Source of the DNA: an uncultured Candidatus Saccharibacteria bacterium
Lineage (GTDB): Bacteria > Patescibacteriota > Minisyncoccia > Phycocordibacterales > PALSA-1337
Assembly (NCBI GenBank): GCA_964358005.1
Contig: CAYHNH010000001.1
Location: 78,775 to 142,774, forward strand
Reading direction: 5' to 3'
DNA: 64,000 bases
In this document: positions 3,891 to 56,238 of the stretch, one piece after another
Position numbering within the stretch: position 1 is the stretch's first letter
Layout: every line of letters begins with the position of its first letter
Program-made: the position numbers and the translations under genes
The notes under the pieces: model-generated
The model's input: only the letters and a program-made list of their open reading frames with translations
Databases searched by the model: none
What the model was told of the DNA's origin: nothing

Positions 3891-5156
3891 CTATGGTCTG
3901 ACAAGATCGAGCGACCATAGCGATAGGTCGTTTTTGTTCATGAAGAACATGAATTTGTCCTTAGAGTCGAGGGTTGGATTGAATACGTTGAGTACCCTGT
4001 CAGCCTTATCGATGAGAGAGGAGATGAGCTTGGCTTCTCCCGTCGTTGCGTTGACCTGCCAAATCTTGTCAGTCGTCGAAACGCTTCCGAGGTACCAATC
4101 ATCGGGATAGATCCCGCTCGGGAGTTCGCTGGGCACTCCACAGTAGGCTAGTTCCCTGTACAGGTTGCCCCACACGCATTTGTCCGAGAGCGTGCGGAAG
4201 ACTGCATCGGTGGTGGTCGCAGCCGATACCGAATATACGCCGGTAGCGATGGTTCCGTCCTTAGTGGAAGAGTAGAGGACATGTTTGCCTGTCCGGCTGA
4301 CTGCTGCCGTAAGGCCGTAAATAGGGCCAAGGATCTTTGTCCAGGCGCCGCTCTTAGGGTTGACGAAGTAGAGGAATCCCCCATAGTTGGCCGAAGGCTT
4401 GGTAGTGATGGCGATGATGTCATCTGCCGGCCAGGATACGTTTATGTCAGTAAGCGGTGTGGTGAAGATGCGCGTTGGAGCCGAAGCGCTAAATGAAGAT
4501 AGGTACCCCGCACCGGTGCCGTTCTCGTTTACGATGACGATGACACGCGAGGTATCCGGCGAGGCCGCGTAACCTATGACATTTCCGGATATATTCCTTC
4601 CGCGCAGCTCGTAAGGCGAGAATTGCGCTGTAGTCGAGGCCTTTTTGCTGGGCACAATGTCCGTATAGACAGTAGTCGGGTATAGATTACCGTCCTCGAA
4701 CATGGAAGCGATGAATGCTGTCAGATTCCTATTCCACACGCTCCTCACGATCTTAGGTACGACAGTATTAGAGAGCGTAGTAATCGCGGCCGAATCATAA
4801 GTCGCCTGGTAGACGTTCCCTCTCCCCCTGTCCACCCAGAGCACCTTCGTGGTCGTAGCTGTCGTCGAAGCGCCGTATCCACCCACAGGAGAGTCGCTAA
4901 GCAATCGCAGTGCTGGAATGCGTGCCAGTGCGCCGGGCTGTTGTGTAGTAGTCGTGGCAGTGCTTGTGGCCATTCCAGGGCGGGTAGTTCCCGGAGTAGC
5001 GGGCCGTCCCAAGGGCTGGAAGCCGACAGGCGGTTCCTGTCCTTCCGGTCCTAGAGGCACCTGCACCGGGCTCATCAGGAAGTACCAATATGCCCAGCCT
5101 ACGGCGATGAGCAGTATGACTATGAGCAAGGAGATTATGATGTTTCGGATCTTCAT
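3891..5156 (-). CDS. Membrane-anchored protein with a Thr/Pro-rich linker and a beta-propeller-like C-terminal domain (hypothetical)
   Basis: There is one N-terminal TM helix (IIISLLIVILLIAVGWAYWYF), a low-complexity TTRPGMATSTATTTTQQP linker, then about 300 aa rich in predicted beta-strand (TolB/WD-like). Confidence 0.5.
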   Translation of the reverse strand: MKIRNIIISLLIVILLIAVGWAYWYFLMSPVQVPLGPEGQEPPVGFQPLGRPATPGTTRPGMATSTATTTTQQPGALARIPALRLLSDSPVGGYGASTTATTTKVLWVDRGRGNVYQATYDSAAITTLSNTVVPKIVRSVWNRNLTAFIASMFEDGNLYPTTVYTDIVPSKKASTTAQFSPYELRGRNISGNVIGYAASPDTSRVIVIVNENGTGAGYLSSFSASAPTRIFTTPLTDINVSWPADDIIAITTKPSANYGGFLYFVNPKSGAWTKILGPIYGLTAAVSRTGKHVLYSSTKDGTIATGVYSVSAATTTDAVFRTLSDKCVWGNLYRELAYCGVPSELPSGIYPDDWYLGSVSTTDKIWQVNATTGEAKLISSLIDKADRVLNVFNPTLDSKDKFMFFMNKNDLSLWSLDLVRP

Positions 5157-5161
5157 TTGTT

Positions 5162-6448
5162 TTATCGTCTTTCAAGGCCTGCTAGCATCGCATCGATCTG
5201 TATCTGCGTAGTCTGTCTAAATTCAGAGTTTCTAATGGATGCAATGACAGAAGATGTGTAATTTTTTATGTTGTTTACGGCAATGGCTTTGTAGCCAGCG
5301 AACTGCGAATCATTCGACACTGTTAAGATATTGGTAACTACAGCTCTTCCAAAGTTTCCACCAGCTACTGCACCCACGGCGGCTAGAGTTCCCCCGCTTA
5401 CTCCACCCCCGAACGCACCTAAGGTGACTCCGCCTATTATAGTTCCAGCTCTGATCTCCATATCCTGTAGTGCCGCATGGAACGGACCTATGGAGGCATC
5501 CCCTATAGCCTTAACAACTTGGCTTTGCGTGTATGCCATAACAGACGCGTAGCGTGCGTAATCATCGATAGACGTTTTTAATATCGGGTCGTTGCTTAAA
5601 GTGTCCAGTTCCTGATTATATTTTGTCCTGAATGCCAATATCATTCTTTGGCAGGTCTCGAATGTGGCGCCGGCCGAGCATTTTATGATCTCATCATTCA
5701 TCACACCGACGGCGACTTTCACGGCAATAATTATTTTCTCTTTTTTTACCTGGTCTAGTAGGTTCAACCTGTCTAAACATAACGCTTCTATAGCCTCATC
5801 ACCCTTCGGTTCCTCGTCATTACAATCAACCCCGCCTGTGAGGGTCGCGACCCTAGCGTTTATCTCATCCGCTTGCCTCTGCAGACCTGCTGCAGTAGCG
5901 CGCGCCACGGTCACATCGGCAAGGATTTTCCTATTTGCTTCTTTTGTCCTGTCCAGGACACTTGCCGTGCTGGTCTCCAACATGGCGAAGAAGTCTGCTG
6001 TAGTAGCGTACCTCTCATAATTTATCTTAAGCGGAGCGACAAGGGTCTTGGGGATGGCGACCAGTCTGGGGTCTATGGTGCGTAATATGAGGTATGAGCA
6101 GAGGACCAGGAGCAGGCCGTAGACTGCGTTCTTGACCTTGTCCAGACCGGTTTTCTTGTCCTGCCAGGAGTCGGTGGTCATATACTGTAGGCCGCCGAAT
6201 ACGATCATGAATACGGCCCCTGCCGCCGCGATAGCTATGATCAGGTTGAAAATATACTGTATATAGTCCTGGAAATTGAATGAGGACCGCCCTTTTGCCA
6301 ACTCATCGGCTGTGCAGGTCACACCGTTTCCGGGGATGCACGGCAACGGCTCTAGAGCGACGTATTGCTGGCTCTGCGCCCAACCGATCGATGGTAGGAT
6401 CATGATGGTCAGCATCAGTACTAGTGAGATTTTTGTTTTTATTGCCAT
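5162..6448 (-). CDS. VirB2/TrbC-like pilin domain fused to a roughly 300-aa coiled-coil and Gly-rich extension
   Basis: Signal peptide MAIKTKISLVLMLTIMILPSIGWAQ, then two closely spaced TM helices (IFNLIIAIAAAGAVFMIVFGG and AVYGLLLVLCSYLIL) joined by a short loop, the T4SS pilin architecture. The C-terminus is Gly-rich (GGVTLGAFGGGVSGGTLAAVGAVAGGNFG). Confidence 0.45.
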   Translation of the reverse strand: MAIKTKISLVLMLTIMILPSIGWAQSQQYVALEPLPCIPGNGVTCTADELAKGRSSFNFQDYIQYIFNLIIAIAAAGAVFMIVFGGLQYMTTDSWQDKKTGLDKVKNAVYGLLLVLCSYLILRTIDPRLVAIPKTLVAPLKINYERYATTADFFAMLETSTASVLDRTKEANRKILADVTVARATAAGLQRQADEINARVATLTGGVDCNDEEPKGDEAIEALCLDRLNLLDQVKKEKIIIAVKVAVGVMNDEIIKCSAGATFETCQRMILAFRTKYNQELDTLSNDPILKTSIDDYARYASVMAYTQSQVVKAIGDASIGPFHAALQDMEIRAGTIIGGVTLGAFGGGVSGGTLAAVGAVAGGNFGRAVVTNILTVSNDSQFAGYKAIAVNNIKNYTSSVIASIRNSEFRQTTQIQIDAMLAGLERR

Positions 6449-6454
6449 GATGAT

Positions 6455-7543
6455 TTAAAAGGTGATAGGCGAGCTGGAAGCTGCGGCAGTGAATACGGCG
6501 CGGAATGCACCATTAGCACTCTGTAGTATCGATGTTTTGTTCGTGATGCGCAGCTCTATCGCGGTAGAGCCGACGGATCCTTCTGGTGCTCTCAGGGTCA
6601 CGGTTTGGTTCGATACGAGCTCCGGCCGCGACCTCCCGTTTATCATCCAGGCCATGTTGAGGTCCCCCAGACCGGTGGCAGGGGCATTGAAGCCGTACGG
6701 GATGGCCAATACACCCGTCTCTCTCTGTGTGTTGAGATACAAGGCATTGTTTATGGCCGTGTCGTACAAGGGGCCGTACAGTGGGTCATTCTTATAGAAT
6801 TTTACGAAGGGAGCAACAGGGTTCACTGAAACAGAACCGGCGCCTTGGGCGCTGCCGTCCCGGGTACTTACGCTGACTGATATGACATATGGTCTGGGTA
6901 TCATGCCGCCAGGTATGATCAGAGATTGTTTTCCATACCCAGAAGATCCTTCGATGATGTCCCCATTCTGCTCCCATCTATAGAGGAGAGATTTAGGGTC
7001 GTATTCGGTGCCAGCTGAATTGGCCAGATGAGGAATAGCAGCTACTTTGACGTCGTTTTGGTATGCGGTCGCGATCTTGCCCTGGAATGTCGGGGGCTTA
7101 TGTCCGGCCGGCTCGACGATCATATCAACTGAGCCGGAAGTCAGGGTGAGCGAGCTCTGCAGTGATTCGCCGGAGGGAGTCACCGCGGAGATGTTGATTG
7201 AGAGCGATTTGCCCAAAGCTGGAGCCTTGACGGTTATGATATTGGATCCTATGCCCTTTTCCACGACCTTACTCGCGACCGACCAAGTAAGGTTGGCTGA
7301 ATATATATCTATGCTGTAACTCCTTGCTGTAATGGTGACGCTCTGACCTGGCGCCGGATTCGAGATAGATGGAGTCAGCTCTATCCCCCCGACAACCGGG
7401 GTGATGCCCTGGGCGCTCACAGAAATAGTCGCGCTGAGTAACAGACCTGATATGACCAATATAATCCTAGTCCAGCTAGTGCGGCGTTGCATTCCTGCCA
7501 TTTTATCATGGAAGTCGGCCGCTGGTTCAGGAGTTATCACCAA
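6455..7543 (-). CDS. Secreted protein with Ig-like/beta-rich repeats (hypothetical)
   Basis: N-terminal signal/anchor (WTRIILVISGLLLSATISVSAQG), then a Ser/Thr/Gly-rich beta-rich sequence. It sits inside the T4SS-like locus. Confidence 0.5.
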   Translation of the reverse strand: MVITPEPAADFHDKMAGMQRRTSWTRIILVISGLLLSATISVSAQGITPVVGGIELTPSISNPAPGQSVTITARSYSIDIYSANLTWSVASKVVEKGIGSNIITVKAPALGKSLSINISAVTPSGESLQSSLTLTSGSVDMIVEPAGHKPPTFQGKIATAYQNDVKVAAIPHLANSAGTEYDPKSLLYRWEQNGDIIEGSSGYGKQSLIIPGGMIPRPYVISVSVSTRDGSAQGAGSVSVNPVAPFVKFYKNDPLYGPLYDTAINNALYLNTQRETGVLAIPYGFNAPATGLGDLNMAWMINGRSRPELVSNQTVTLRAPEGSVGSTAIELRITNKTSILQSANGAFRAVFTAAASSSPITF

Positions 7544-8045
7544 AATGTTGGGTAGGCTGCCTTACCCCACCCACATTCAGAGGTTGCCTGCCAGCAGCGT
7601 GGTTTACACTTTCAGTGTCAGCCCGTCTTATTCCTCCTTGATTGAGCGGTGCATTGCCGGGCACAGACGCTTTTATTCCAGTCTTATCCTCTAGTCTGGA
7701 GAGGACTATGACTACGGCAATTCCTACGATGAGGAGTGGGAACTCTTGAATGACCGGAATCAGCTCCGTGGCCATCGATATAAGAGAAGTGGCGAGGCGC
7801 CGCGCATTCAAGATGCCGTGCCCTTTGAAGTACAGGTATATGCTGACGAGTACCCAGAATACGGGAGCTACGATATCGCCGGCGATAGGGATCAAAGTCA
7901 CGATGTCGGCAACTGTCGCAAAGAACAACAGTCCTACTACTGCTGTATTTTTCAGCCTATAGTTGGTGCCCTTGTCGGTCACCGCCTTAAGGACGGCTCT
8001 TACAGTTTCTTTTTTCTCACTATCGGTCTGTCCTGTCTGAGCCAT
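7527..8045 (-). CDS. Small polytopic membrane protein (hypothetical)
   Basis: 172 aa with 3-4 predicted TM helices (VVGLLFFATVADIVTLIPIAGDIVAPVFWVLVSIYLYF; LLIVGIAVVIVL). It is adjacent to VirB4. Confidence 0.4.
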   Translation of the reverse strand: MAQTGQTDSEKKETVRAVLKAVTDKGTNYRLKNTAVVGLLFFATVADIVTLIPIAGDIVAPVFWVLVSIYLYFKGHGILNARRLATSLISMATELIPVIQEFPLLIVGIAVVIVLSRLEDKTGIKASVPGNAPLNQGGIRRADTESVNHAAGRQPLNVGGVRQPTQHFGDNS

Positions 8046-8069: not shown

Positions 8070-9887
8070 TTATGCCCCCGCCTGTTCTAGGTCGCGCTTG
8101 GCTTTCTCTATCTCCATGACCTGGGCCGGGTTAGTCGTGATGATCTGGTCCTCCGTGTACGAGGCGCGTATCTGGATAGCCACATGTTTCAGTCCTACGA
8201 AGAATATACCCTCGCCCACATCCGACTCGAGCAGGAGGTACTTCTCTTCGTCTGTCAGATTGAACGTCTGTTGGATATGATCGATGATGGTCGGAGACTG
8301 CTTGAGCAGGATCTGGATCGAGGAGTTGGTGAGGATCGGCAGGCCATAAGGCGATTTTAGGAAGTCGTCCACGTCTTGAGTGATAGTGGCCAAGCCCAGG
8401 AAGTATTTGCGGCCGCGCTTGGCCAAACTGTACAGGAATGAAGCCGTATCTTCGGATTTCATCATCCACCAGGCCTCGTCGATGACCAAGAGCCTCTTCT
8501 TGCGGATCTTTCGGATGGCATTCCATATATAGTGCGTGACTATGTACATGGCAACAGGCTTGAGCTCGTCTTCCATGTCGCGTAGGGAGAAGACGATGAA
8601 TTTGTTGTTAATGTCCACATTCGATGGGCGGTTTATGAAGCCCGACCATGTGCCCTTCGTATACTTGGTCAGTCTCTGGACTAGCGAGTCAGCGCCTTCC
8701 ATGCCAGCCAGCACCAGTTCGAAGTCGGACAATAGCGGGGGCTCGATATTGTGGAAATTTGATTCCGGGGAGATGTCTTTGAGGGCGTATGTCTCGGTGA
8801 TGGCTCGGTCGATGATAGCGTCCTCTTCTTGCGACAAACCACCTAGCATGATGCGGAAGAGTCCCACCAAGTTGATGATATTGGAGCGCAATACATCCGA
8901 GCTAGACTCGTCCTCCCCCACTATAGGCAGGTCGAAAGGATTTATGTGGTGCTCGGAGTTAAGCGAGATATTGAAATATTTTCCGCCGGTGGCTTCTGAC
9001 ATGTACTCGTACTCCTTTTCAGGGTCAATGACTATGACATCGCCATCGAACATGAGTGTGCGCAGGATTTCCAGCTTGGTGCAGTAGGACTTACCGGCGC
9101 CGGCCACCGCGAAGGTCACGGAGTTGTAGTTTGCCAGCGAATAACGGTCAAATAGCACCAGCGAGGAGTTGTGGCGGTTTATCCCATAGAGGATGCCCTT
9201 GTCTGATGTGAGGTCGAATGACACGAACGGAAAGACGCTCGAGAGCGGCGAGGAGTTGAGCTTGGAATGCACCATGAGCTGATCATCACAGATCGGAATG
9301 ACGCTCTTGAACCCAGGTTCCTGCTGGAACAGCGCCGGCTTGAGGTACACGAGCTTTGATTCGAGGATGGATTTTATCTCGGACTCGAGCTTATCGAGCT
9401 CGCTCTCATTGTCGGCAAAGATGGTGAGGTATACTCCGACGTCGAAGAGGTGTTCCTGGGCCTGCATGAGCTGATCGCGCAAGGTTTCTAGGTCCTGATA
9501 TGCGGTGTCTAGGGCCGGGTCGCGGACCAGTCCCTTCTCTTCTCTTCTCGATATCTGGCTCTGTACCTCGGCGACCTTTTTCTGGAAATGGCGCAGGATC
9601 CTGGCCGTATCTACGGGATGTATGAATATGGAGGCATTGAATACCTTGTCGAGATTGATGATGGGGGCGAACCAGCTCTCATCCAGGAAGCGCGGGTAGG
9701 ATATGACGAAGAGGGTCCTGCCGACTTTTTCACCCAGGTTAAGCTCCTTGGGGCTTATCTTCAGTGCCGATGGGGCGATGACGTCCTTGAGCTCCAGGAC
9801 TCCTGCCTGATATATCTCCTCCGGAAGTATGGAGATGATGGGCGATTGCTCGTCTTTTTTGCCGAATAGTTTGGATATGAAGCTCAT
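8070..9887 (-). CDS. virB4: Type IV secretion/conjugation ATPase VirB4/TrbE family, C-terminal 605-aa portion including the ATPase domain
   Basis: Walker A AVAGAGKS and Walker B RLLVIDEAWWM are present, plus a VirB4-like linker/membrane-proximal region (VIAPSALKISPKELNLGEKVGRTLFVISYPRFLDESWF). Confidence 0.85.
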   Translation of the reverse strand: MSFISKLFGKKDEQSPIISILPEEIYQAGVLELKDVIAPSALKISPKELNLGEKVGRTLFVISYPRFLDESWFAPIINLDKVFNASIFIHPVDTARILRHFQKKVAEVQSQISRREEKGLVRDPALDTAYQDLETLRDQLMQAQEHLFDVGVYLTIFADNESELDKLESEIKSILESKLVYLKPALFQQEPGFKSVIPICDDQLMVHSKLNSSPLSSVFPFVSFDLTSDKGILYGINRHNSSLVLFDRYSLANYNSVTFAVAGAGKSYCTKLEILRTLMFDGDVIVIDPEKEYEYMSEATGGKYFNISLNSEHHINPFDLPIVGEDESSSDVLRSNIINLVGLFRIMLGGLSQEEDAIIDRAITETYALKDISPESNFHNIEPPLLSDFELVLAGMEGADSLVQRLTKYTKGTWSGFINRPSNVDINNKFIVFSLRDMEDELKPVAMYIVTHYIWNAIRKIRKKRLLVIDEAWWMMKSEDTASFLYSLAKRGRKYFLGLATITQDVDDFLKSPYGLPILTNSSIQILLKQSPTIIDHIQQTFNLTDEEKYLLLESDVGEGIFFVGLKHVAIQIRASYTEDQIITTNPAQVMEIEKAKRDLEQAGA

Positions 9888-10525
9888 GTTAGTTGTATCG
9901 GCTTCTCTGTTTCGCCTGGGTTAAAGATCTTGTAGAACAATTCTACCACTTCCTCGGTGCCAAGCTCGGCCGTGCGGATGCCACAGCGCACCAGACCCTG
10001 CTCTACTACGGCCACTCTTTGCTCTAGCTGGCTCTTGTATTCCTGGAATTTCTCCTCGGCGGAGGCGGTCTCCTTTTGGGTGGCTTCCCTCTGGGGCATC
10101 ATCCTGGATATGGGGTTTTTGCCGGCGCCCATGATCGGCGGGTCGTAGGGCACGACCACAAAAAAGCCCTTGGACATGATGTTGGTTGTTTCGACGAACG
10201 TTTTTATGAATTCTATGTACTCTCGGACCTGTATCTTCATGAGCTCAGTAGGCTGTTCCTTGTATCTGTCCTCGAGGAGAGCTATGTACGGCCTGATATC
10301 TAGCTTTTTCGACTGTATGTATATCTGTATCGAGAAATCGAGCGAGTTCAGGAAGTTCTGGAACTGCAAAAGTATGGCGCTCTGTTCGTCTGAGGACTTC
10401 AGGGCGAAGTTTAGCGAAGTCGCGAGGACGAGCGCGCGCATGCCGCCGCTCTTCAAGATGACGACCCCATCGCGTATCTCCTGGATGGGAACGAAGTTCT
10501 GGGTTGTCTGGGTTTGTGAAGCCAT
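9884..10525 (-). CDS. VirB4 N-terminal domain encoded as a separate 213-aa ORF
   Basis: FVPIQEIRDGVVILKSGGMRALVLATSLNFALKSSDEQSAILLQFQNFLNSLDFSIQIYIQSKK matches the N-terminal domain pattern of Gram-positive-type VirB4 (PrgJ/TcpF/Orf16-like). Its stop overlaps the downstream start as ATGA at 9884..9887. Confidence 0.6.
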   Translation of the reverse strand: MASQTQTTQNFVPIQEIRDGVVILKSGGMRALVLATSLNFALKSSDEQSAILLQFQNFLNSLDFSIQIYIQSKKLDIRPYIALLEDRYKEQPTELMKIQVREYIEFIKTFVETTNIMSKGFFVVVPYDPPIMGAGKNPISRMMPQREATQKETASAEEKFQEYKSQLEQRVAVVEQGLVRCGIRTAELGTEEVVELFYKIFNPGETEKPIQLT

Positions 10526-10959
10526 CAGCGTTGGTCTTTGTTAGAGTATATGCTCTCCTTTATATCTAGGCTCCATGAGAGGTCCTTCAGTTTGCTGTCC
10601 GAGATCTTGGGGACCATTATCGAGGCGTAATTCTTGGCCTGCTTCACTGCCTCCGCGGTCGTCGGTGGCTGGGGTTTGGGCTCTTTCTTCCATATATATA
10701 GTTTGGCTCCGAGCCAGAACCTTATTGCCGCTTCTAGCACTCCGATGAGCGGCTTGTTGTTCACCTTGTAGAAGGCTAAGGAGAGCGATAGCGCCATGAC
10801 TATCACTATAGGCAGTAATGACAGGATTATGCTGTTCAGCATGAAGTAGATCACGAATGAGAGCCCTGCTCCTCCAGCGACGTAGATGAATTGCTTCAAC
10901 GTCAGTGGGCCAAAGATCTTGTCCTCTACTTCTATGAATTGAGGTACCTGAAATCGCAT
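10525..10959 (-). CDS. PrgI/VirB3-like small membrane protein
   Basis: 144 aa. The N-terminus MRFQVPQFIEVEDKIFGPLTLKQFIYVAGGAGLSFVIYF has the PrgI-family pattern (F.EKI.G.LT.RQ), followed by two TM helices. It sits immediately upstream of VirB4. Confidence 0.5.
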   Translation of the reverse strand: MRFQVPQFIEVEDKIFGPLTLKQFIYVAGGAGLSFVIYFMLNSIILSLLPIVIVMALSLSLAFYKVNNKPLIGVLEAAIRFWLGAKLYIWKKEPKPQPPTTAEAVKQAKNYASIMVPKISDSKLKDLSWSLDIKESIYSNKDQR

Positions 10960-11008: not shown

Positions 11009-11626
11009 CTAGACCAATGGTTCCCTGTAGGGGTCGCCGCTCGTCGAAGCTCCTGGTACTGCCGGGCTCGGCTTCTGTGTCACTTTTTCGGTAGGAACGG
11101 CGGTCGAACTGCGTAGGAGCTGTTCGACGAGGGATTCCCTTTTCTGTTCTGGTGCCGTGGTTGGTGCCTGCGGTGCGCTTCTAGGGGCCGTCGGTTGCGG
11201 GTTTTCGAGGCCTTCCAGCACGTCTTTGCGGTTTATCGGTACGATTGAGCCGTCATCAGCCTGGGGATTCCCAACGGCTGGCGTTTTCTCTATCGTGAAG
11301 TCGCCGGCCTGTTCGAGTGCCTTGTTGCCTTCGGTACTTGTAAGCTCGGTACCCTGTAGTTCCTCACGGAATACCTTTATGAGTTCTTCGTTCACGCTTT
11401 GGGTTATGCCATCTGCTGTTTCTGAATCAATTTTAAGTAAGTCGGTTATGTTCTGGGTGAAGTCTGCTGGTTGGCTCAAGCCCAAAAGGATCTTCTTTAT
11501 CTCTACGTCTAGCTCTCCCAATTGATCAAGGTTAAGACCGAACTTTTCACCAACGGATTCGACTGCCGTGTATATCCGGGGGTCCCGAGACAAGTTTTTT
11601 ATGCCGCCTATTGTTTGTGGGTTCAT
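11009..11626 (-). CDS. Acidic hypothetical protein within the T4SS-like locus
   Basis: A 205-aa ORF on the same strand, between the VirB6-like and PrgI-like genes. No recognisable motif. Confidence 0.4.
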   Translation of the reverse strand: MNPQTIGGIKNLSRDPRIYTAVESVGEKFGLNLDQLGELDVEIKKILLGLSQPADFTQNITDLLKIDSETADGITQSVNEELIKVFREELQGTELTSTEGNKALEQAGDFTIEKTPAVGNPQADDGSIVPINRKDVLEGLENPQPTAPRSAPQAPTTAPEQKRESLVEQLLRSSTAVPTEKVTQKPSPAVPGASTSGDPYREPLV

Positions 11627-11633
11627 ATTTTTA

Positions 11634-13571
11634 TCATAACCAATCGCTATTTGAAGGCTTGTTCACAAAGCCTTCTGCTTTGTGTGGGAGTCTCGGTCCT
11701 GCCGGACCAACTCGCCAGCCACTAATCTTGTTGCCGATGGCCTTCTTCAGAACAGTGTCGATGCCTTCATCCCCCATCGCCTTTAGCTGTCCTGCCGTAA
11801 GGTGCTCTATCACTTTTTCATCCTCAAGGAGAGATGGTCCAGGTACCCTGGAGGTGACATCCAGGAGGTCCTTTCCGTTCATTTCGCCCGTCATGTGCTT
11901 TATTTGCTCGGTCTCTTCCCTCGTTACGGAATCCTCAAGGGCCTTGCCTCTGAGATCCAATATCTTGTTCTTATCTTCATCAGAAATGTCCTCAGATTTT
12001 GCGATCGAGGCAAAATCTTCTCGGCTGGCGTGCTTGAGTATCTGCATGACTGCGTCATCGTCCTTTTCTTTTAGTTTTGCCGTTATCGCGCCAGTCTTTT
12101 CCTTGGTGCTCATGACGCTGACTACCGTCTTCAGGTCGGCGTGAGTGCCAGTACGAGCCATGACAGCATTGAGTTTGCTATTGAAGTTGTTCTTCCTATC
12201 GATGATCTTGCCCTCCTTGCTAACCTCCTTCTGCTCCTTCTGGCGTTCCTCATGCGATCTCATGCCACCCATCTTGCTCTTGGCCAGAGCGCCGGTGGTA
12301 GCTCCTCGTATGTCGCGTGCCAGGAGAGTGTTCCCGAGTTTTGTACCCGCCATTGCCTTGTCTAGCCTTGCTGCCCCAGCTCCGATTGTCTTGGTACCAG
12401 CATAGCCACCAATAGTGCTCCAGACCTTGCCGGCACCGAACTTATCTGCAGCCTTATTTAGTATCGATATAGTCTTGCCCGCTATGCTGGCCGCCGCAAC
12501 CAAGGGAAGGTTGAGCAGGAAAATGACGATGGTGGCATTGACTGCTAGGAGCATGTATTCTCTGTACCAAGGAGCCGCGCTCACGGCTGCCGTCGTGCTT
12601 TGCGGGTCGAACATCGGCGTGGTCGTGAGGACATTCAAGGCCAGATACATGAGTAGCAGGTACACGGGCATGAACAGCAGCATGCTCTTGTAGAGATCCC
12701 ACCACTTGCCAGCGTAGGTTTTCACCTCTGGGGCCAAGAAAGAGATGAAATATACTGGCGAGAATGCCAAGAGGAACAGCAGGATGACGAATCGGGCGAT
12801 GAAGGCAAATGCCGCGGCGGCAAAGCTTATCGTAGCCACGAATTCTATGATGATGCCTATTATACCGACCATGATTATTTTGAAAGTATCGTTGAACAGT
12901 CCAGTGGTACCGTTGCTCGATCCTAGCCCGGATGCCGCGTTGCTGGCCGAGAAGTCATAGAGCTTGGTTATCTTCAGTGAGTTCATGAATATATCGGAAA
13001 GGCCGCCGTCTCGTATGAGAACGCCGTTTTCGAGGCCAATCTGCTCGTTGCCGAGAGCCATCCCACCGGTTGCCGTATTCGCTGGAGCGATAGCGTTGTA
13101 GAGCTGCATGGAAACTATGTTCGACGCGTCTATGCCGAGACCCGTGAGGAAGAAGCTGAAGTTGATCAGGATGCCGGCCATGACGATGTTCTTTATGAGC
13201 TCCTTGAACTTCGGATCCTGCAGTCCGAGGATGAGCTGGACGGAGGCGTAGAGCAGGAAGAAGATTATGAATATGCCGCTTATGTCCCGGATCGCCTTCC
13301 AGGTCGTATATATGGCTGGCGCATTGTCTACGAAAGCTTTTATATTGAGCGTGAGCCTGATCGAAACGTTGAGGAGGAAGCCGGCGATGGCCAATATCCA
13401 GCTCATTATCTTTAGTCCTGTGTTGAAGAACATGGCGACGAGCTCATTGAAGGTGCCGTATGCGATATTGAAGAGGCTCCACTGCGCATGTGCCTGGTGG
13501 GTGGTCGCCACGAAGACAACAAATGCCAGGAGTAGGACGGCGCCGATTTTTATGAGGTGTTTCTTCTTCAT
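11634..13571 (-). CDS. VirB6/TrbL-like polytopic membrane protein with a long hydrophilic C-terminal tail
   Basis: Likely start MKKKHLIKIGAVLLLAFVVFV (signal/anchor), then at least 6 TM helices and a charged C-terminal region of about 250 aa. Architecture and position match VirB6-family channel proteins. Confidence 0.55.
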   Translation of the reverse strand: MKKKHLIKIGAVLLLAFVVFVATTHQAHAQWSLFNIAYGTFNELVAMFFNTGLKIMSWILAIAGFLLNVSIRLTLNIKAFVDNAPAIYTTWKAIRDISGIFIIFFLLYASVQLILGLQDPKFKELIKNIVMAGILINFSFFLTGLGIDASNIVSMQLYNAIAPANTATGGMALGNEQIGLENGVLIRDGGLSDIFMNSLKITKLYDFSASNAASGLGSSNGTTGLFNDTFKIIMVGIIGIIIEFVATISFAAAAFAFIARFVILLFLLAFSPVYFISFLAPEVKTYAGKWWDLYKSMLLFMPVYLLLMYLALNVLTTTPMFDPQSTTAAVSAAPWYREYMLLAVNATIVIFLLNLPLVAAASIAGKTISILNKAADKFGAGKVWSTIGGYAGTKTIGAGAARLDKAMAGTKLGNTLLARDIRGATTGALAKSKMGGMRSHEERQKEQKEVSKEGKIIDRKNNFNSKLNAVMARTGTHADLKTVVSVMSTKEKTGAITAKLKEKDDDAVMQILKHASREDFASIAKSEDISDEDKNKILDLRGKALEDSVTREETEQIKHMTGEMNGKDLLDVTSRVPGPSLLEDEKVIEHLTAGQLKAMGDEGIDTVLKKAIGNKISGWRVGPAGPRLPHKAEGFVNKPSNSDWL

Positions 13572-13575
13572 GTTT

Positions 13576-15096
13576 TTACAGGCGGTCACATGCTGTCTGG
13601 AATGCGGCGGCATCGGCGGTGAATGTTACTACGCGACCTCTGACATAGTTCAGGTCTGACTGGGAGGAGGTAACCAATGCCGCGACGTTCGATCCAGATA
13701 GGAATTGGCTGAGGCCATTGACCTGAGTGTTTATGTTTTGAGCTACCTGATCGATCGGATTATTTCCAATTACAGACGGTGGTGTGGATAGACGAATGAC
13801 TATGTAATCTCGCCTACTGGTCAATTCGTTAATAAAACTGCCCACCTCGTATTGTTGTGTCGCTATCAGGCTGAGGTTTGTCTGGGCGTCTTGTATCTTC
13901 TGTTGGGTCTGGCTGATGCCTAGTTTTCCTGTAAAGCACGCCTGTGCTTGGCTGTATTTGGTGTAGGCTTCGTTTACCAGGACGATGGCGTCATCGTAGT
14001 TTCTCTTAGCCATGCTTAAAGCACCCGCATCTGGATTGGAGCCATCGCCTGTCCCTCCTGTTGGGGTTAACGTGTTCGCATATACCTGTTGTAGGTACAA
14101 TCTCCCGCTTCCAGGTCCAGATGATCCGGAGCTCATAGCGTAAAGTCCTCTTTGCAGAGTCTTGGTTACAAGTTGCGATACGAGCGCGCTCACCACAGCG
14201 TTTATGTTGTCAGCGAGCTCGAGCTGTCTTGCCGGAGACTGGAGAGAGCTGTTCAATGATGCTTCTATGACAGAGCCAGGTGTTTTGTATTGGCACTTCT
14301 GCAGGTGGCCGTCCGGTCCGTCCTTGTAGGCTACACCGCCCGAGGAAGTCCCCCTGTAATTTCCGGCCTCTTCATCGGATATCCCGGCGTCTTCACATGA
14401 TTCCCATGAGAGAAAGCCTTTTCCCTGTATAAGGTCGCTCTGCACAAAGGCTTTCTTTTGTGAGACAGCGAACATCTGGTCGCTCCTTGCCATAAGGATG
14501 GTTCCTATCGGATTGTTCTGGTCCTCTGTTGTTAACGCAATGAAGGCTGGCCAGCCACCCTGCTTGAAATCTCCTTTTATGAAGCCGTCTATGCTCGCGC
14601 CGTTGACGTAACTGCCCTGATAGTTGTCTATGACGGTGCTTAGAGTGCAGGTATATTTTCGACGATTTGGCATACCGTCACCGGGGGTTTCAAGCTGTTG
14701 GATAGCTAGGGCGACCTTTATGTCTACGCTCCAAGGCGAGCACAGCCTTTTGAGCGGGCCGCTGTCTGAGATGAATTGACCGGTGAGCTGGTCAGCCGCG
14801 TCTAGGAAAAATCCTTCAGGATTAGTGAGGAATGAAGGCTTGCCCTTGAAGCCAGTGTTGATCCAATTAACCACGGACACTGTCATCTGATTCAGGACCT
14901 GCTTGGCTGCCATGTAGGCTAGTCTATCGCCGAGGAAATCCTTCCAGTTTCTCGCCTGATTAAAAAAGGCGTTGGCGATACCTGTCGGGCTAGTATCGCC
15001 GACCTGGAGGGTGGCGAGCTGCGCGTTTGCGATCTGCGAATTGGTTGTAAAAATAATACAGGAAATAATCAAAAACACCGTTGCGAGGTATTTCAT
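13576..15096 (-). CDS. Secreted hypothetical protein (likely start MKYLATVFLIISCIIFTTNSQIANAQ)
   Basis: Signal peptide, then a soluble Gly/Ser/Thr-rich domain with several Cys. Same strand, between the VirB6-like gene and rsmA. Confidence 0.5.
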   Translation of the reverse strand: MKYLATVFLIISCIIFTTNSQIANAQLATLQVGDTSPTGIANAFFNQARNWKDFLGDRLAYMAAKQVLNQMTVSVVNWINTGFKGKPSFLTNPEGFFLDAADQLTGQFISDSGPLKRLCSPWSVDIKVALAIQQLETPGDGMPNRRKYTCTLSTVIDNYQGSYVNGASIDGFIKGDFKQGGWPAFIALTTEDQNNPIGTILMARSDQMFAVSQKKAFVQSDLIQGKGFLSWESCEDAGISDEEAGNYRGTSSGGVAYKDGPDGHLQKCQYKTPGSVIEASLNSSLQSPARQLELADNINAVVSALVSQLVTKTLQRGLYAMSSGSSGPGSGRLYLQQVYANTLTPTGGTGDGSNPDAGALSMAKRNYDDAIVLVNEAYTKYSQAQACFTGKLGISQTQQKIQDAQTNLSLIATQQYEVGSFINELTSRRDYIVIRLSTPPSVIGNNPIDQVAQNINTQVNGLSQFLSGSNVAALVTSSQSDLNYVRGRVVTFTADAAAFQTACDRL

Positions 15097-16819: not shown

Positions 16820-17566
16820 TTAAAAATCTATGAAAATAGCCTTGGCTCCAGTCGGTTTGGGAGGGATGCTGTCCTCGATGAGGTTCTTTTCGATGTCCTC
16901 GATGAACTCTGAAGGGGTATTGACCCTCTCGGTGCCGTAGATTTTCCTGACGAGCGAGTAGCTCAAGTGGATTTTTTTCCGAGCACGGGTCAGAGCTACA
17001 TAGAACAGTCTCCGTTCCTCCTCTGCCTCGTGCTGGCTCATGTCCCCGTCATCGGAATGCTTGAATGGGAAAAGGTCTTGTTCCAGTCCGGCTATGAACA
17101 CGTGGTCGAACTCGAGGCCTTTGGCCGCGTGCACGGTCATCAGTTTGACTGAGTCGGTATTCTCGTTGAGCTCGTCCTGATCGGTGGCGAGCGCCGCGTT
17201 CGTCAGGAATGCCTCGATGCCTTCCTCTGGCTTCAGGTGGTCGTACTGCGATGCTACGGAGACGAGCTCACGGACGTTAAGCAGGCGATCCTCATCCTCC
17301 ATATCTCCAGAAAGCAAAATCTTCTCAATGCCGCTTTCCTGGATGATGAAACGGATGACATCCGATGCCTTCTTTTCCTTTATCTCCTCGCGTATGTCAG
17401 AGAGGAGCTTCCTGAAATCGGCTATCTTGTCGCGCATGCCCGGAGGGAGAGAGTCCTCTTCCCCGCCGACGATCTTCGCTAGCGTCACCTTGCCGATGCC
17501 TCGAGGTGGCACGTTTATTATACGGCTAATGTCAGCCACGCTTTCTGGATTTAAGGATGCCTTCAC
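16820..17566 (-). CDS. uvrD: UvrD/PcrA-family helicase, C-terminal fragment (2B/2A domains); starts at a GTG three nt after an in-frame TAA
   Basis: ISRIINVPPRGIGKVTLAKI, VKLMTVHAAKGLEFDHVFIAGLEQDLFP and RRLFYVALTRARKKIHLSY are the conserved helicase motifs V/VI region. Confidence 0.7.
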   Translation of the reverse strand: MKASLNPESVADISRIINVPPRGIGKVTLAKIVGGEEDSLPPGMRDKIADFRKLLSDIREEIKEKKASDVIRFIIQESGIEKILLSGDMEDEDRLLNVRELVSVASQYDHLKPEEGIEAFLTNAALATDQDELNENTDSVKLMTVHAAKGLEFDHVFIAGLEQDLFPFKHSDDGDMSQHEAEEERRLFYVALTRARKKIHLSYSLVRKIYGTERVNTPSEFIEDIEKNLIEDSIPPKPTGAKAIFIDF

Positions 17567-17569
17567 GTA

Positions 17570-18751
17570 TTATAGGACGTCCTTCACCTCCTTCCTTTCG
17601 AAGAATTTCACCCCCAGCAATTGGTATGGGATGTTCTTCTTGATGAAGGCTTCTTCGAGCACGCGGGATTGGAAGTTTGTCCGGTATAGGACGGCGATCT
17701 CCCTAGGAGACAGGCCGGTCTCGATGAGATCCCGGGCGGAGTCAGCTATGGCTCGGGCTTCCTCGGTTTCAGAGTAGGAAGCCGAGAGGGATATCTTCTC
17801 ACCGGCAACATTGTCGGTATACAGGGTCTTCTTCTTGCGCATGGAGTTCTTCTCGATCACGGCATTGGCTGCCGCAAGAATAGTTTTCGTCGAGCGATAG
17901 TTCTTTTCGAGAGTGATCACGGTGGTGTTGGGATAGTCCTTTTCGAAATGGAGGATATTCTCTATCGTCGCCCCGCGCCAGCTGTAGATATTCTGGTCCG
18001 CGTCCCCGACGGCGCAGATATTGTTATGCGCTGCGGCTAGATGGTTGGCGATCTTGTATTGGACCTTGTTTGTGTCCTGGTATTCGTCTATGTGTATGTA
18101 CTTCCAGACCTTGGCGTAGCGTTCCCTGATATCCGCCCTCTCCAACAAGTGGGCCGTCTTTGCCAAGAGGTCATCGAAGTCTAGAGCTTTTTCCTTGAAT
18201 AGGATGGCGTCATATCTTTCCCACACCTCTGCTGTCATCTCCTGCATAAAATCCCTGGCCGCGTCCTTGTACTGGAGCGGATTATGCCCATCGCCCTTGG
18301 CTCGGGAGATGAGATTGAGGAATAGTCCCGGGTCGTATTTTTTCGGGTCGATGTTGCGCGAGAGCATGGCTTCTTTGACTGCCCGCTTCGAGTCGCCGCG
18401 ATCATATATCGTAAAATACCTGGTGAGGCCGAGCAGGTGGGCGTTTTCTTTTATTATGTGCACGCCGAGGGCGTGGAAAGTGCTTACGAACGGCTTTTCA
18501 TTGATGGAGATTGGGCGGTTTATTCCGTTGTCCACCGAAAGCAGGCTTGTCACCCTGTCGCGCATTTCCTTGGCCGCCTTGTTGGTGAAAGTTATTGCCA
18601 ATATCTCATGCGGAGCTACCCCGGACCGGACCAGATTGAGGATTCTATGGGCTATGACCCTAGTTTTGCCCGAACCAGCACCAGCGACTATGAGCAAGGG
18701 GCCGTTTTTGGTCTCGACGGCTCTTTTCTGGGCTTCGTTGAGAGTGTTCAC
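17570..18751 (-). CDS. uvrD: UvrD/PcrA-family helicase, N-terminal fragment (1A/1B domains), ending at an in-frame TAA
   Basis: LLIVAGAGSGKTRVIAHR (Walker A), ILAITFTNKAAKEM, HIDEYQDTN (motif II) and the KFFERKEVKDVL end. It is in frame with the downstream fragment. Confidence 0.7.
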   Translation of the reverse strand: MNTLNEAQKRAVETKNGPLLIVAGAGSGKTRVIAHRILNLVRSGVAPHEILAITFTNKAAKEMRDRVTSLLSVDNGINRPISINEKPFVSTFHALGVHIIKENAHLLGLTRYFTIYDRGDSKRAVKEAMLSRNIDPKKYDPGLFLNLISRAKGDGHNPLQYKDAARDFMQEMTAEVWERYDAILFKEKALDFDDLLAKTAHLLERADIRERYAKVWKYIHIDEYQDTNKVQYKIANHLAAAHNNICAVGDADQNIYSWRGATIENILHFEKDYPNTTVITLEKNYRSTKTILAAANAVIEKNSMRKKKTLYTDNVAGEKISLSASYSETEEARAIADSARDLIETGLSPREIAVLYRTNFQSRVLEEAFIKKNIPYQLLGVKFFERKEVKDVL

Positions 18752-18945
18752 CGGGACATACTACCATAAAGACCATGTTCATATCGCGTTTGACTTCGGG
18801 TCAAAAAATGATATCCTTGGGCCACATATCCAATCTTTATGTTTTTGACATTCACGGCTCTATATAGCCATGAATACATAGGGACAGGATCACAGGACGG
18901 CTGATATTACCTTTACGGATGCTTGACAGGAGGGGCACATCCATT

Positions 18946-20037
18946 ATGCACTCAAACCAGTCCGAAAAAAATCAATACCCTGCCTTTTTTAGGTTCAAGC
19001 GCCTCATCCCGGCATTGGTCATTTCAGTGGCCGTCACATCTTCCATATTTGTCTTTTCCAAGACCGCCAATGCCGGTCTTGTGTCTTTTTTGAACATGCT
19101 CATGGGTAATCAGCAAGCTTCTGCCAAGCTCATGATCCCGAGAGCCGCGGATTCGCAAATCCTGCCCACTATCGTCCTCATGGCTGCCGGCAACCCGATC
19201 CTTCTGGCCCAGGCATCCCAGACCCCGCCTATAGAGGGCGAGACTACCCTTTCGCCGGACATAGCGCGCATGAATGCGACTTCAACCGAAGAGATAAACA
19301 CCCAGATCAGCATATATGTGGTCAGACCGGGTGACACCATATCATCTGTGGCAAAGATGTTCAGCGTGTCTGTGAGCACAGTCCTCTGGGCGAATGACCT
19401 AACGAGCAAATCCCTGCTACAGCCGGGACAGACTCTGGTCATACTTCCAGTTACGGGCATAACTCACAAGGTTATGAGTGGAGACACCATCCAAAGCATC
19501 GCAAAGAAATACAATGCCGACATAGAGGACATCCTCAATTACAATGATCGGACATTGGCCTCGGTTCTGAAGGCTGGAGAAGAGATATTGATACCGAACG
19601 CGGAGATTCCTACGCTGACGGTTTCGCCGGCACGCAATCCTGCCAAGCCTGCAAGCGGACCTCTGATATCAGGCTACTATTCATGCCCTTTGCCAGGGTC
19701 CAAAGTCACCCAGCGTTTGCATGGACATAACGGAGTCGATCTAGGAGCTCCTAGCGGCACGCCCATACGGGCGGCAGCGGGCGGGACGGTCATCATCAAT
19801 CGCTCCAACGGTGCATGGAACGGCGGATACGGGAATTTCATCGTAGTGCTCCATTCTAACGGGACACAGAGTCTCTATTCCCACATGTCCAGGAGCACAG
19901 TCCAGGCTGGAGAGGTCGTCTCGAAGAATCAGACTATCGGCTATGTTGGCATGACCGGCCTTACGACGGGTCCACACCTACATCTCGAAATCCGCGGCGC
20001 TCAGAATCCATTCACTGATCAGGGTCTTTGCCGGTAG
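18946..20037 (+). CDS. LysM-domain (x2) M23-family murein endopeptidase
   Basis: Two LysM repeats (YVVRPGDTISSVAKMFSVSVSTVLWAN and HKVMSGDTIQSIAKKYNADIEDILNYN). The C-terminal M23 motifs are HNGVDLGAPSGTPIRAAAGGTV and YVGMTGLTTGPHLHLEI. The start is taken at MHSNQSEK, preceded by GGAGG. Confidence 0.8.
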   Translation: MHSNQSEKNQYPAFFRFKRLIPALVISVAVTSSIFVFSKTANAGLVSFLNMLMGNQQASAKLMIPRAADSQILPTIVLMAAGNPILLAQASQTPPIEGETTLSPDIARMNATSTEEINTQISIYVVRPGDTISSVAKMFSVSVSTVLWANDLTSKSLLQPGQTLVILPVTGITHKVMSGDTIQSIAKKYNADIEDILNYNDRTLASVLKAGEEILIPNAEIPTLTVSPARNPAKPASGPLISGYYSCPLPGSKVTQRLHGHNGVDLGAPSGTPIRAAAGGTVIINRSNGAWNGGYGNFIVVLHSNGTQSLYSHMSRSTVQAGEVVSKNQTIGYVGMTGLTTGPHLHLEIRGAQNPFTDQGLCR

Positions 20038-32050: not shown

Positions 32051-32623
32051 ATGATAATAGGCGTAGATTTGGATGATGTGCTGCTGGATTTTTTCGGCAC
32101 ATTTTGCGATTTCATAAACGAAAAGAATGGCACGAAATACGACAGGAACAGCCTGACTGATTTTTATCTTGAAAAATCTTGGGGCTGGACGAAAGAGGCC
32201 GCCTCGCAGGCGATCACGGACTTCTATGCATCCGCCAAGCATGTGGGTGCTGCTCCCGTAAAAGGCGCAGTGGAAGCGGTAAGCACGCTTTCGAAGGGCA
32301 ATACTCTGCACATCATAACTTCCAAGCCGGACTCTCTGCGGGAAATTACTGAGAAGTGGGTGTATAAAAATTACCCGGGGATGTTCGCCGGCATTCATTT
32401 CATGAATCAATACCACAGCAAAGGCGAGAAACGCCTTAAGGCCGATGTCTGCAAAGAGCTGGGCGCCACGATATTGATCGAGGATTCCCTGGAGCAGGCG
32501 CAGAGCGCGGACGCCAAGGGTATCCGCGTCTTGATGCTGGACGCTCCCTGGAACCAGAAAGATGTGCGGACATCTATAACCAGGGTGAAGTCATGGAACG
32601 AGATTGTCACTTTACTTTCTTAG
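32051..32623 (+). CDS. HAD-superfamily 5'(3')-deoxyribonucleotidase-like hydrolase
   Basis: HAD motif I at the extreme N-terminus (MIIGVDLDDVLLDF), then LHIITSKP (motif II-like) and ILIEDS (motif IV-like). The ATG lies 2 nt after the tRNA-Gly 3' end. Confidence 0.6.
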   Translation: MIIGVDLDDVLLDFFGTFCDFINEKNGTKYDRNSLTDFYLEKSWGWTKEAASQAITDFYASAKHVGAAPVKGAVEAVSTLSKGNTLHIITSKPDSLREITEKWVYKNYPGMFAGIHFMNQYHSKGEKRLKADVCKELGATILIEDSLEQAQSADAKGIRVLMLDAPWNQKDVRTSITRVKSWNEIVTLLS

Positions 32624-33376
32624 AGAGATATCCCAGAGGGTCTTGAAGTGCATGAGCTGCAGCTTGGCGAACTCCTCGCTCTGTACTATGAACCCAAAGG
32701 GCTTCTCGCTGGAGGATACGAAAGCGACTTTGTCTGCATATATCCAGTAGCTGATCTCGAAATGCATGGATTTCGGAGTGTAGCGTATCTCCCGCAAGTC
32801 GTCTTTCCTAGTGCCCATGTAGGGATATTTTTTGAAGTTTATCTTTCTGGAATCGTGGCGACGTAGGGCCTTCAAGCTTACATTATTGGCGATACGCCTC
32901 TTGTTGTGCCACTCCAAATATTCTGTGCCTAGGATATCCATCATCTTATGAGTCGGCCAGAGGGAATAGGTCTCTATATTCTTGTAAAAAAGGGCATCGT
33001 TAAAGATCCTTTGTATACCTTCCTGACCAGCGAAAAATCGGATCTGCGGCTCGACCGTCTTGGTCCTCTTTCTTAAAGAGGGAAGGGCTTCCTTCAATAA
33101 TTTTTTTCCGTGCTCGATTACGGCTGTCTGCTGGTCTAGGAGCTGGGTCAGAGTATCTGGATCGCTTGCTCCGAATATGGTTTTCGAATCCTCGATCTTC
33201 GATACGACCAGACCCTTATTCATGAGGTCGTTCAGGCCGTCATATACAGTGGGGCGGGGCATGCTCAATCTCTGCGAGATCATCCGGGCTGATGCCGCGC
33301 CAGATCCCAGGAGATCCAGGTATATACGCTGGGTGCCGCCCTCCACGCCCAGTACTTTTAGGATATCTTCTATCAC
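32612..33376 (-). CDS. TrmB-family transcriptional regulator, copy 1
   Basis: N-terminal winged HTH (LKVLGVEGGTQRIYLDLLGSGAASARMISQRLSMPRPTVYDGLNDLMNKGLVV). It is divergent from an SBP gene. Confidence 0.7.
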   Translation of the reverse strand: MIEDILKVLGVEGGTQRIYLDLLGSGAASARMISQRLSMPRPTVYDGLNDLMNKGLVVSKIEDSKTIFGASDPDTLTQLLDQQTAVIEHGKKLLKEALPSLRKRTKTVEPQIRFFAGQEGIQRIFNDALFYKNIETYSLWPTHKMMDILGTEYLEWHNKRRIANNVSLKALRRHDSRKINFKKYPYMGTRKDDLREIRYTPKSMHFEISYWIYADKVAFVSSSEKPFGFIVQSEEFAKLQLMHFKTLWDISLRK

Positions 33377-54412: not shown

Positions 54413-54485
54413 AGGGCAAGCCTGAAGGTTCTATCCGCGCACTGTGCCTACGGTGCGCTTTTTTGCATGGTATAATTGTGGTGAC

Positions 54486-56237: not shown

Positions 56238-56238
56238 T

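Follow-up and report, generated by a model that had tools for sequence, protein, structure and literature searches.

A pilin-domain protein with a variable helical extension in the origin-proximal type IV secretion operon of Paceibacteria

Patescibacteria, or the candidate phyla radiation (CPR), make up a large share of bacterial diversity and apparently depend on host cells. Their type IV secretion system (T4SS) is essential in one tested species. The gene described here lies in a stretch of 64,000 nucleotides (contig CAYHNH010000001.1 of assembly GCA_964358005.1, positions 78,775 to 142,774; hereafter the window) and encodes what we call the long pilin, a protein in which a hairpin of the T4SS_pilin family is followed by a large helical extension. 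Our best reading is that it is the single pilin-like subunit of a chromosomal, origin-proximal T4SS of Parcubacteria/Paceibacteria, within the CPR. By analogy with characterised pili, it may be the sole VirB2-like subunit that polymerises or stacks, with a conserved hairpin at the core and variable, host-facing bundles outside; we put this proposal at about an even chance.

The long pilin gene (5162..6448, minus strand, as are all its parts given below) is a complete open reading frame (ORF) of 428 amino acids (aa) with its stop codon at 5162-5164. Public collections hold an identical protein (100%), called from Met12 and 417 aa long, together with 104 homologues of 307-580 aa, counting those that align over the hairpin alone, and we therefore consider the gene to be real. 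The ATG at 6448 is a better start than Met12, because the n-region that it adds is rich in Lys, as in the consensus of the family. A first-pass annotation, made from the letters alone, had described a signal peptide, two transmembrane (TM) helices separated by a short loop and about 300 further residues; a hydropathy scan and an AlphaFold2 (AF2) model agree with this layout, and the hairpin sequence that was quoted is present. The predicted signal peptide (aa 1-24, 6377..6448) has a MAIKTK n-region, a hydrophobic core, which the hydropathy scan places within aa 1-25, and a signal peptidase I type cleavage site between GWA and Q, where A24 and Q25 are conserved in the family. The alternative of a simple lipoprotein signal was tested and found no support: the lipobox [LVI][ASTVI][GAS]C is absent, the signal peptide ends in PSIGWA directly before QS, and no Cys comes before residue 37, which stands within PLPC, 13 residues past the cleavage site.

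The mature protein, of about 43 kDa, begins with a putatively extracytoplasmic N-segment (aa 25-58, 6275..6376) that carries an EPLPCIPG..GVTC motif, a Cys37/Cys45 pair recognised by its co-occurrence and a small beta element (AF2 strands at aa 29-35 and 54-57); the motif EPLPCIPGNGVTC comes after the cleavage site and its QS, ahead of the hairpin. The hydrophobic alpha-helical hairpin that follows (aa 59-126, 6071..6274) is the T4SS_pilin domain. AF2 predicts it as a helix-loop-helix at 59-91 and 95-125 with a predicted local distance difference test score (pLDDT) of about 90, the loop holding an invariant K98 and G101, and the hydropathy scan places TM1 at aa 62-91 (score 2.64) and TM2 at aa 107-126 (score 1.68). 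Next comes a Pro-rich linker (aa 127-149, 6002..6070) with the motif RTIDPRLVxIPxTLVxPL, which lies outside the Pfam model and is specific to the long-pilin family. It is nearly invariant although AF2 predicts it to be unstructured (pLDDT about 50): P127 does not vary, and D126, R128, L129, V130, I132 and V137 are at least 90% conserved. The motif is specific enough to retrieve 38 loci.

The C-terminal extension (aa 150-428, 5165..6001; 29.6 kDa) is predicted to form an elongated helical bundle with helices at 150-204, 218-258, 263-284, 288-318 and 380-427 (pLDDT >90), in line with the helices expected by the first-pass annotation, and two Cys pairs, C209/C224 and C257/C266, sit at helix turns. 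The term coiled coil used there is fair for roughly the first 90 residues of the extension, which gave weak coiled-coil-type matches among PDB sequences and nothing stronger; the glycine tract is predicted to be disordered. This Gly/Ala/Val-rich tract (aa 335-367, 5348..5446; pLDDT <40) is present as first described, with GGVTLGAFGGGVSGGTLAAVGAVAGGNFG at aa 339-367; it carries repeated GxxxG in a glycine-zipper-like pattern, has no charges and has a grand average of hydropathy (GRAVY) of +1.10. A tract with at least 30% Gly over 30 aa occurs in 21 of the 104 members, and in several homologues the equivalent segment scores as a TM segment. The tract is thus an insertion of a sub-family and not a hallmark of the family. 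Its matches to known glycine-rich families fell short, at 21.6 bits for DUF6861 (cut-off 28 bits) and E 5.6 for SlyB/Gly-zipper.

The assignment of the N-terminal region to T4SS pilins held at the level of Pfam family PF18895 (T4SS_pilin, a model of 71 positions with a gathering threshold of 26.6 bits). The full protein scores 38.0 bits (E 1.7e-9, aa 61-123) and the isolated N-domain 42.2 bits, and all 23 family members examined match. PF18895 is the one family that all 23 share; others are common to at most nine, and weak, spurious matches of the hairpins to DUF308, DctQ and further families also occur. Members of PF18895 are expected to be small, ending soon after helix 2, and to lie in a T4SS cluster near virB4. 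The long pilin departs from the first expectation, running on for about 300 aa after helix 2 to a length of 428 aa, and agrees with the second, as two genes separate it from the VirB4 gene. It also has the two hydrophobic helices and the short loop with a conserved basic residue that mark canonical pilins, K98 being invariant in the loop as R91 is in the VirB2 alignment. A second, weaker link is to NF045849, the Mbov_0395 pilin-like family of Mycoplasma integrative and conjugative elements (ICEs), which 12 of the 23 hairpin domains match at E <=0.01 across the whole 80-residue model (best E 1.5e-5), with all members below the curated cut-off of 40 bits (20.6 bits for the full protein and 24.5 for the N-domain). 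This link is in keeping with the affinity to MPF_FATA that has been reported for the CPR system. As an aside, the sub-threshold matches hint at a VirB2-like two-helix protein in the MPF_FATA systems of Mollicutes, a class that is held in print to be without VirB2 homologues.

We then asked how widely the long form is distributed. A scan of 185,579 species-representative genomes from GTDB with the linker motif returned 38 loci, to which three metagenome loci were added, giving 41. The 38 loci are labelled Parcubacteria, Paceibacterota, Taylorbacteria, Nomurabacteria or Minisyncoccia. All 41 loci share the gene order of the window, and the arrangement near VirB4 is seen in all that are long enough to show it (33/38 genome loci). 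Complete pilin ORFs at these loci span 326-628 aa, and each locus has exactly one ORF with a pilin domain within +/-10 kb. The long form is therefore the invariant form of the pilin gene in the whole lineage and not an oddity of one genome. Asked whether orthologues share the extension, the data answer in two parts: all relatives have the long form, and only about one in five has the glycine tract.

We searched 1.84 billion representative proteins with a profile built from 20 sequences of the extension (aa 146-428) and obtained 108 hits, in nearly all of which the match starts at residue 135-270 of a protein of 350-580 aa. Apparent stand-alone copies (P0106, P0163, P0103 and short hits) were rejected, as they start inside the linker or the hairpin and are thus truncated gene calls. 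A Pfam scan of 20 extension sequences found no recurrent family, Foldseek with the whole model against the PDB returned generic helical bundles alone and nothing at E <0.1, and the extension had no specific fold or profile match to VirB5/TraC-type pilus-tip proteins or to other helical-bundle families. NCBI labels some members 'pilin' or 'hypothetical protein'. Because the extension never occurs alone and always follows the pilin hairpin, it is a lineage-specific domain rather than a known module that has been joined on. The idea of a pilin fused to a further domain thus stands as far as the large appended domain goes; a fusion of two pre-existing genes does not.

Cysteine patterns bear on the topology of the protein. 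Cys37 and Cys45 occur together in 86 of 104 members, with singletons counted 0 and 3 times, and the extension contains 0, 2, 4, 6 or 8 Cys in 101 of 104. Such pairing points to disulfides, from which we infer that the N-segment and the extension are both outside the cytoplasm, the N-out/C-out arrangement of VirB2-type pilins. Conservation declines steeply between the core of the machine and the extension. Taking the median identity to the window across species, VirB4 stands at 90%, TrsD at 78%, DnaA (for comparison) at 75%, PrgI at 69% and the pilin hairpin domain at 59%; BLAST could align the extension in no more than 3 of 38 loci, at about 40%. The hairpin has a mean column entropy of about 1.1 bits, as against about 3 bits for the extension, which by these measures is the fastest-evolving part of the operon. 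The extension keeps its length, helical architecture, paired Cys and C-terminal motifs DY..YA and I.DP across the family. A separate observation concerns the ATPase: across 31 species-level genomes VirB4 is 87-94% identical and DnaA, in the same genomes, 65-90%. Constraint on VirB4 is unusually strong for a secretion ATPase.

The operon, on the minus strand, reads in order 279-aa, 518-aa, VirB6-like, 205-aa, PrgI, TrsD, VirB4, 172-aa, 362-aa, pilin and 421-aa genes, and adjoins yidC-rnpA-dnaA. The VirB6-like gene (11634..13613, 659 aa) encodes a polytopic, multi-TM membrane protein; the copy in the window is without a Pfam match and its label is inferred from position, while the orthologue at one other locus (L001) has a weak TrbL_3 match. 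After a 205-aa protein of no family (11009..11626, from the ORF list) come PrgI, a VirB3-like membrane protein of 144 aa (10525..10959; PF12666, 44.5 bits, cut-off 27), and a 213-aa protein like TrsD or the VirB4 N-terminal domain (9884..10525), for which weak NCBIfam matches were to TrsD and to residues 99-233 of Mbov_0397 VirB4, and whose orthologues carry PF26593 (TraC-like). The VirB4 N-terminal domain (TrsD/TraC-like) is thus encoded by a separate gene, the stop of which overlaps the start of virB4. The VirB4-family ATPase itself (8070..9887, 605 aa) is of the CD1110 type (NF045971, 366 bits, cut-off 325; Pfam P-loop_TraG and AAA_10). A 172-aa membrane protein (7527..8045, from the ORF list), which is not in every locus, precedes the upstream neighbour of the pilin gene, a beta-rich protein of 362 aa with an N-terminal TM segment (6455..7543) that is without a Pfam or NCBIfam match and lies directly 5' of the pilin gene in 38/38 genome loci. 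The downstream neighbour (3891..5156, 421 aa), the last gene of the operon before yidC, has an N-terminal TM segment, a Pro/Thr-rich linker and a possible beta-propeller (weak TolB-propeller match), and is syntenic in all loci that reach that far. These two genes flank the pilin gene in every locus, with a median identity of about 47%, and their products, both beta-rich and assigned to no family, are probably extracellular parts of the same machine.

VirB5, VirB8 and VirB10 families were not detected among the operon proteins, nor was a dedicated TraF-like peptidase seen in the operon, and neither the family hidden Markov model (HMM) nor a screen for small two-TM ORFs found a second pilin gene in the window. 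No coupling protein (T4CP) or relaxase was found among the larger ORFs of the 64-kb window, the remaining content of which is housekeeping genes and a type IV pilus (T4P) pilB/pilC pair. A reading of the locus as a mobile element (ICE) was rejected: dnaA, rnpA, yidC and ksgA flank the operon in all genomes, and the larger ORFs of the window include no relaxase or T4CP. The published layout of the Paceibacteria T4SS, with VirB4, TrsD, PrgI, VirB6 and a VirB2-like PF18895 protein near dnaA/rnpA/ksgA and without a relaxase (PMC12102498), is of this kind. With neither a coupling protein nor a relaxase among the larger ORFs of the window, the system probably works in contact or exchange with the host and not in conjugation, a role that has also been proposed for other Patescibacteria.

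We propose the following course for the long pilin. Sec/YidC insertion and cleavage of the signal peptide would leave the hairpin in the membrane with both ends outside, the loop with the invariant Lys98 facing the cytoplasm, and the extension outside the cell, stapled by disulfides as its paired Cys suggest. In VirB2/TraA pili the inter-helix loop, which has a basic residue, borders the lumen, and the C-terminal residue lies farthest out. If the analogy holds, hairpins would be drawn from the membrane by the VirB4/VirB3/VirB6 machine and assembled into a tube or stalk, and the C-terminal bundle of each subunit would project from the outer surface to form a variable coat that faces the host. 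In the sub-clade to which the window belongs, the bundle may gain, with its glycine-zipper-like loop, an element that acts on membranes or associates with itself. Within the T-pilus the innermost position is held by the loop residue Arg91 and the outermost by the C-terminal Gly121 (bioRxiv 10.1101/2022.04.28.489814), so that a C-terminal extension would be external. The same structure is a 5-start helix that rises by 13.9 A and measures 79.6 A in outer diameter (bioRxiv 10.1101/2022.04.28.489814); from these dimensions we calculate an outer surface of about 690 A2 per subunit, which is about the cross-section of a 4-5-helix bundle, and a filament with radially projecting bundles would therefore be just feasible.

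Several points weigh against this proposal. Polymerisation is proposed by analogy rather than from direct evidence. Homology to VirB2/TrbC, which the first-pass annotation had suggested, could not be shown: PF04956, the canonical VirB2/TrbC family, matched 1 of 23 members (E 0.0011), and hhalign gave the N-domain alignment a probability of 1.3% against Ti VirB2 and 0.5% against a VirB2/TrbC alignment of five sequences, both alignments being shallow and the sensitivity therefore low. (The Ti VirB2 query was checked at 99% identity against annotated plasmid genes, and the five sequences came from plasmid records.) Searching PDB sequences with the N-domain profile returned no solved pilin, only light-harvesting beta chains at E 0.76, which is noise. 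A structural comparison with T4SS pilins was no more telling, in that Foldseek with the AF2 model of the mature N-domain against the PDB gave generic hairpins, such as encapsulated ferritins, at E >0.5, and none of the first 50 matches was a pilin; the helical hairpin fold is too simple to discriminate. These negative comparisons lower the claim of membership in the VirB2/TrbC family and still leave room for common ancestry: a failed sequence comparison is weak evidence against relatedness, because T-, N- and F-pilins are themselves only 9-19% identical in pairs (10.1101/2022.04.28.489814). TM1 shows one more variable face, which fits a lipid-exposed anchor as well as it fits a filament subunit. 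A domain of 30 kDa on every subunit of a filament would be sterically tight and, to our knowledge, is without precedent. The characterised monoderm T4SSs have no pili, and systems of the Gram-positive type need parts that span the wall (PMC12102498, PMC12857230). Finally, the conserved and apparently unstructured linker could be a processing site, which would yield a short mature pilin.

The observation on monoderm systems fits a different arrangement, which we regard as possible and hold tentatively. In it the long pilin is a structural subunit that does not polymerise; its hairpin docks against VirB6/VirB3 to form a ring of a few copies, with the bundles, of about 8 nm, serving as a stalk, a wall-spanning conduit or a fixed adhesin. 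Such a subunit would functionally replace the parts of VirB5, VirB8 and VirB10 type that are missing from the operon. The pilin gene being single-copy, unlike the multi-gene pilin arrays of Saccharimonadia, is consistent with this arrangement, a bulky extension fits a ring more easily than it fits every subunit of a tube, and the high conservation of the hairpin is in keeping with contacts to a VirB4/PrgI core that is itself very conserved. Against this arrangement, the hairpin falls in a family that has been annotated and discussed as one of pilins, its loop with an invariant basic residue and its N-out/C-out layout are like those of pilins that polymerise, and divergence as extreme as that of the extension is seen more typically on exposed surfaces than in an internal stalk that bears load.

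Processing in the linker would make the gene product a precursor, cut within RTIDPRLVxIP after export to give a short, conventional pilin, with the helical domain either released or acting as a chaperone or pro-domain. The linker is what one would expect of a recognition site, nearly invariant and predicted to be unstructured, and the Pfam pilin model stops just before it. TrbC and VirB2 are processed at their C termini, RP4 TrbC and Ti VirB2 being trimmed before cyclisation; the C-terminal pro-peptides that are known have 4-30 residues, not 280. Cyclic TrbC is noted in PMC13434634. That the extension keeps its length, helices, paired Cys and C-terminal motifs argues for a function of its own, and with no TraF-like peptidase seen in the operon we think such a precursor improbable. 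Least credible is that the gene is an artefact, two genes merged by a sequencing or assembly error, or a generic two-TM protein unrelated to T4SSs. Two-helix hairpins do give many weak, spurious family matches, and the fold search cannot separate pilins from other hairpins. Nevertheless, the same uninterrupted architecture recurs in more than 100 independent assemblies and in 38 species-level genomes, every member matches PF18895 above threshold, and the position inside the T4SS operon is invariant; the homologues, the universal family match and the fixed position effectively refute this explanation.

A polymerising pilin with host-facing bundles remains our preferred reading, and a bolder form of it can be put forward, which we consider unlikely: in a filament or tip, every VirB2-like subunit would display a rapidly diversifying 30 kDa bundle, and in some lineages, that of the window among them, the glycine-zipper loop would insert into the host membrane. 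If this were true, the pilin itself would be the device by which these epibionts recognise hosts and contact their membranes, and pilins of this kind would form a novel, 'headed' class of the conjugative type, in which the T4P design principle is built on a VirB2 scaffold. The structurally characterised conjugative pilins that we know of are all small hairpins of 7-12 kDa, and the appended domain has no counterpart among them, as had been supposed at first reading. The T4SS of Patescibacteria, its VirB2-like pilins, its essentiality in one species and its origin-proximal location are already published (PMC10633639, PMC12102498, PMC12857230); in this literature on the Patescibacteria T4SS (PMC10633639, PMC12102498, PMC12857230 and a supplement) we found no account of a pilin lengthened by a C-terminal domain. 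What the present gene adds is a pilin hairpin permanently joined to a large, fast-evolving and probably extracellular domain; throughout the CPR class that is richest in species, the operon has no other pilin gene. The long pilin offers a specific candidate for the surface that the machine presents to its host, and it is a test of the amount of cargo that the outside of a VirB2-type filament can bear. Its combination of a conserved core and a hypervariable exposed domain also offers a ready marker for the evolution of host range.

Elsewhere in the window, a cell-wall hydrolase with LysM and Peptidase_M23 domains (18919..20037, plus strand) lies close to the T4SS operon and is a candidate substitute for VirB1, a role discussed for such enzymes in PMC12102498. 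The pilB gene (T2SSE and MshEN) and pilC gene (T2SSF) are found at 54444..57459 on the plus strand, and the genome therefore has a T4P system separate from the T4SS. A UvrD/PcrA-like helicase (16820..18751, minus strand) is split by an in-frame TAA at 17570-17572 into an ORF with the UvrD-helicase domain and the start of UvrD_C (17570..18751) and another, in the same frame, with the remainder (16820..17566); the gene could be a pseudogene or genuinely split, or the stop could stem from an error in sequencing. Between 32612 and 38565, three TrmB-family regulators (32612..33376, 34568..35338 and 37822..38565) are interleaved with three Peripla_BP_6 solute-binding proteins (33450..34550, 35443..36561 and 36562..37704). 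A membrane H+-translocating pyrophosphatase is encoded at 47540..49537 on the minus strand (PF03030, 914 bits).

Among known systems, the glycine-zipper segments of SlyB/Pcp lipoproteins and DUF6861 resemble the glycine tract, which has a repeated GxxxG, no charges and a GRAVY of +1.1; the matches are sub-threshold, and the tract differs in being disordered in the AF2 model and absent from about 80% of family members. Type IV pilins are comparable by analogy only. They too combine a conserved hydrophobic N-terminal core with a variable, exposed C-terminal domain that is often disulfide-bonded, but their fold, their assembly machine (PilB/PilC, here at 54.4-57.5 kb) and their processing by prepilin peptidase are unrelated. 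The Mbov_0395 family (NF045849) comprises short, ICE-borne Mycoplasma proteins that the long pilin matches weakly and below the cut-off, and the VirB4 and TrsD of the window likewise match the Mycoplasma ICE VirB4 model Mbov_0397. With VirB2 of the T-pilus, TraM of the N-pilus, TraA of the F-pilus and TrbC of RP4, the long pilin has in common a signal peptide, two helices, a basic loop, both ends outside and a gene that is encoded with those for VirB3 and VirB4. These canonical pilins are, however, of 7-12 kDa, as against about 43 kDa for the mature long pilin, which belongs to a monoderm bacterium, and there is no detectable sequence or profile similarity between them; head-to-tail cyclisation would be very unlikely with this extension.

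The closest systems are those of other Patescibacteria. Southlakia epibionticum has a six-gene pilin array, which is essential (Wang et al. 2023, PMC10633639), and VirB2-like PF18895 pilins near virB4, the dnaA/rnpA location in Paceibacteria and the lack of a relaxase have been reported (Quinonero-Coronel et al. 2025, PMC12102498). As in the window, the T4SS of these bacteria is chromosomal, near dnaA/rnpA in Paceibacteria, without a relaxase or coupling protein nearby, and its pilins, like the long pilin, match PF18895 above threshold and cluster with VirB4, TrsD, PrgI and VirB6. The pilins described so far are small proteins, frequently encoded in arrays of 2-11 divergent copies, whereas the long pilin is single-copy and 428 aa long, and it adds an N-terminal Cys-paired motif specific to its family, a conserved Pro-rich linker and a helical extension of 280 aa.

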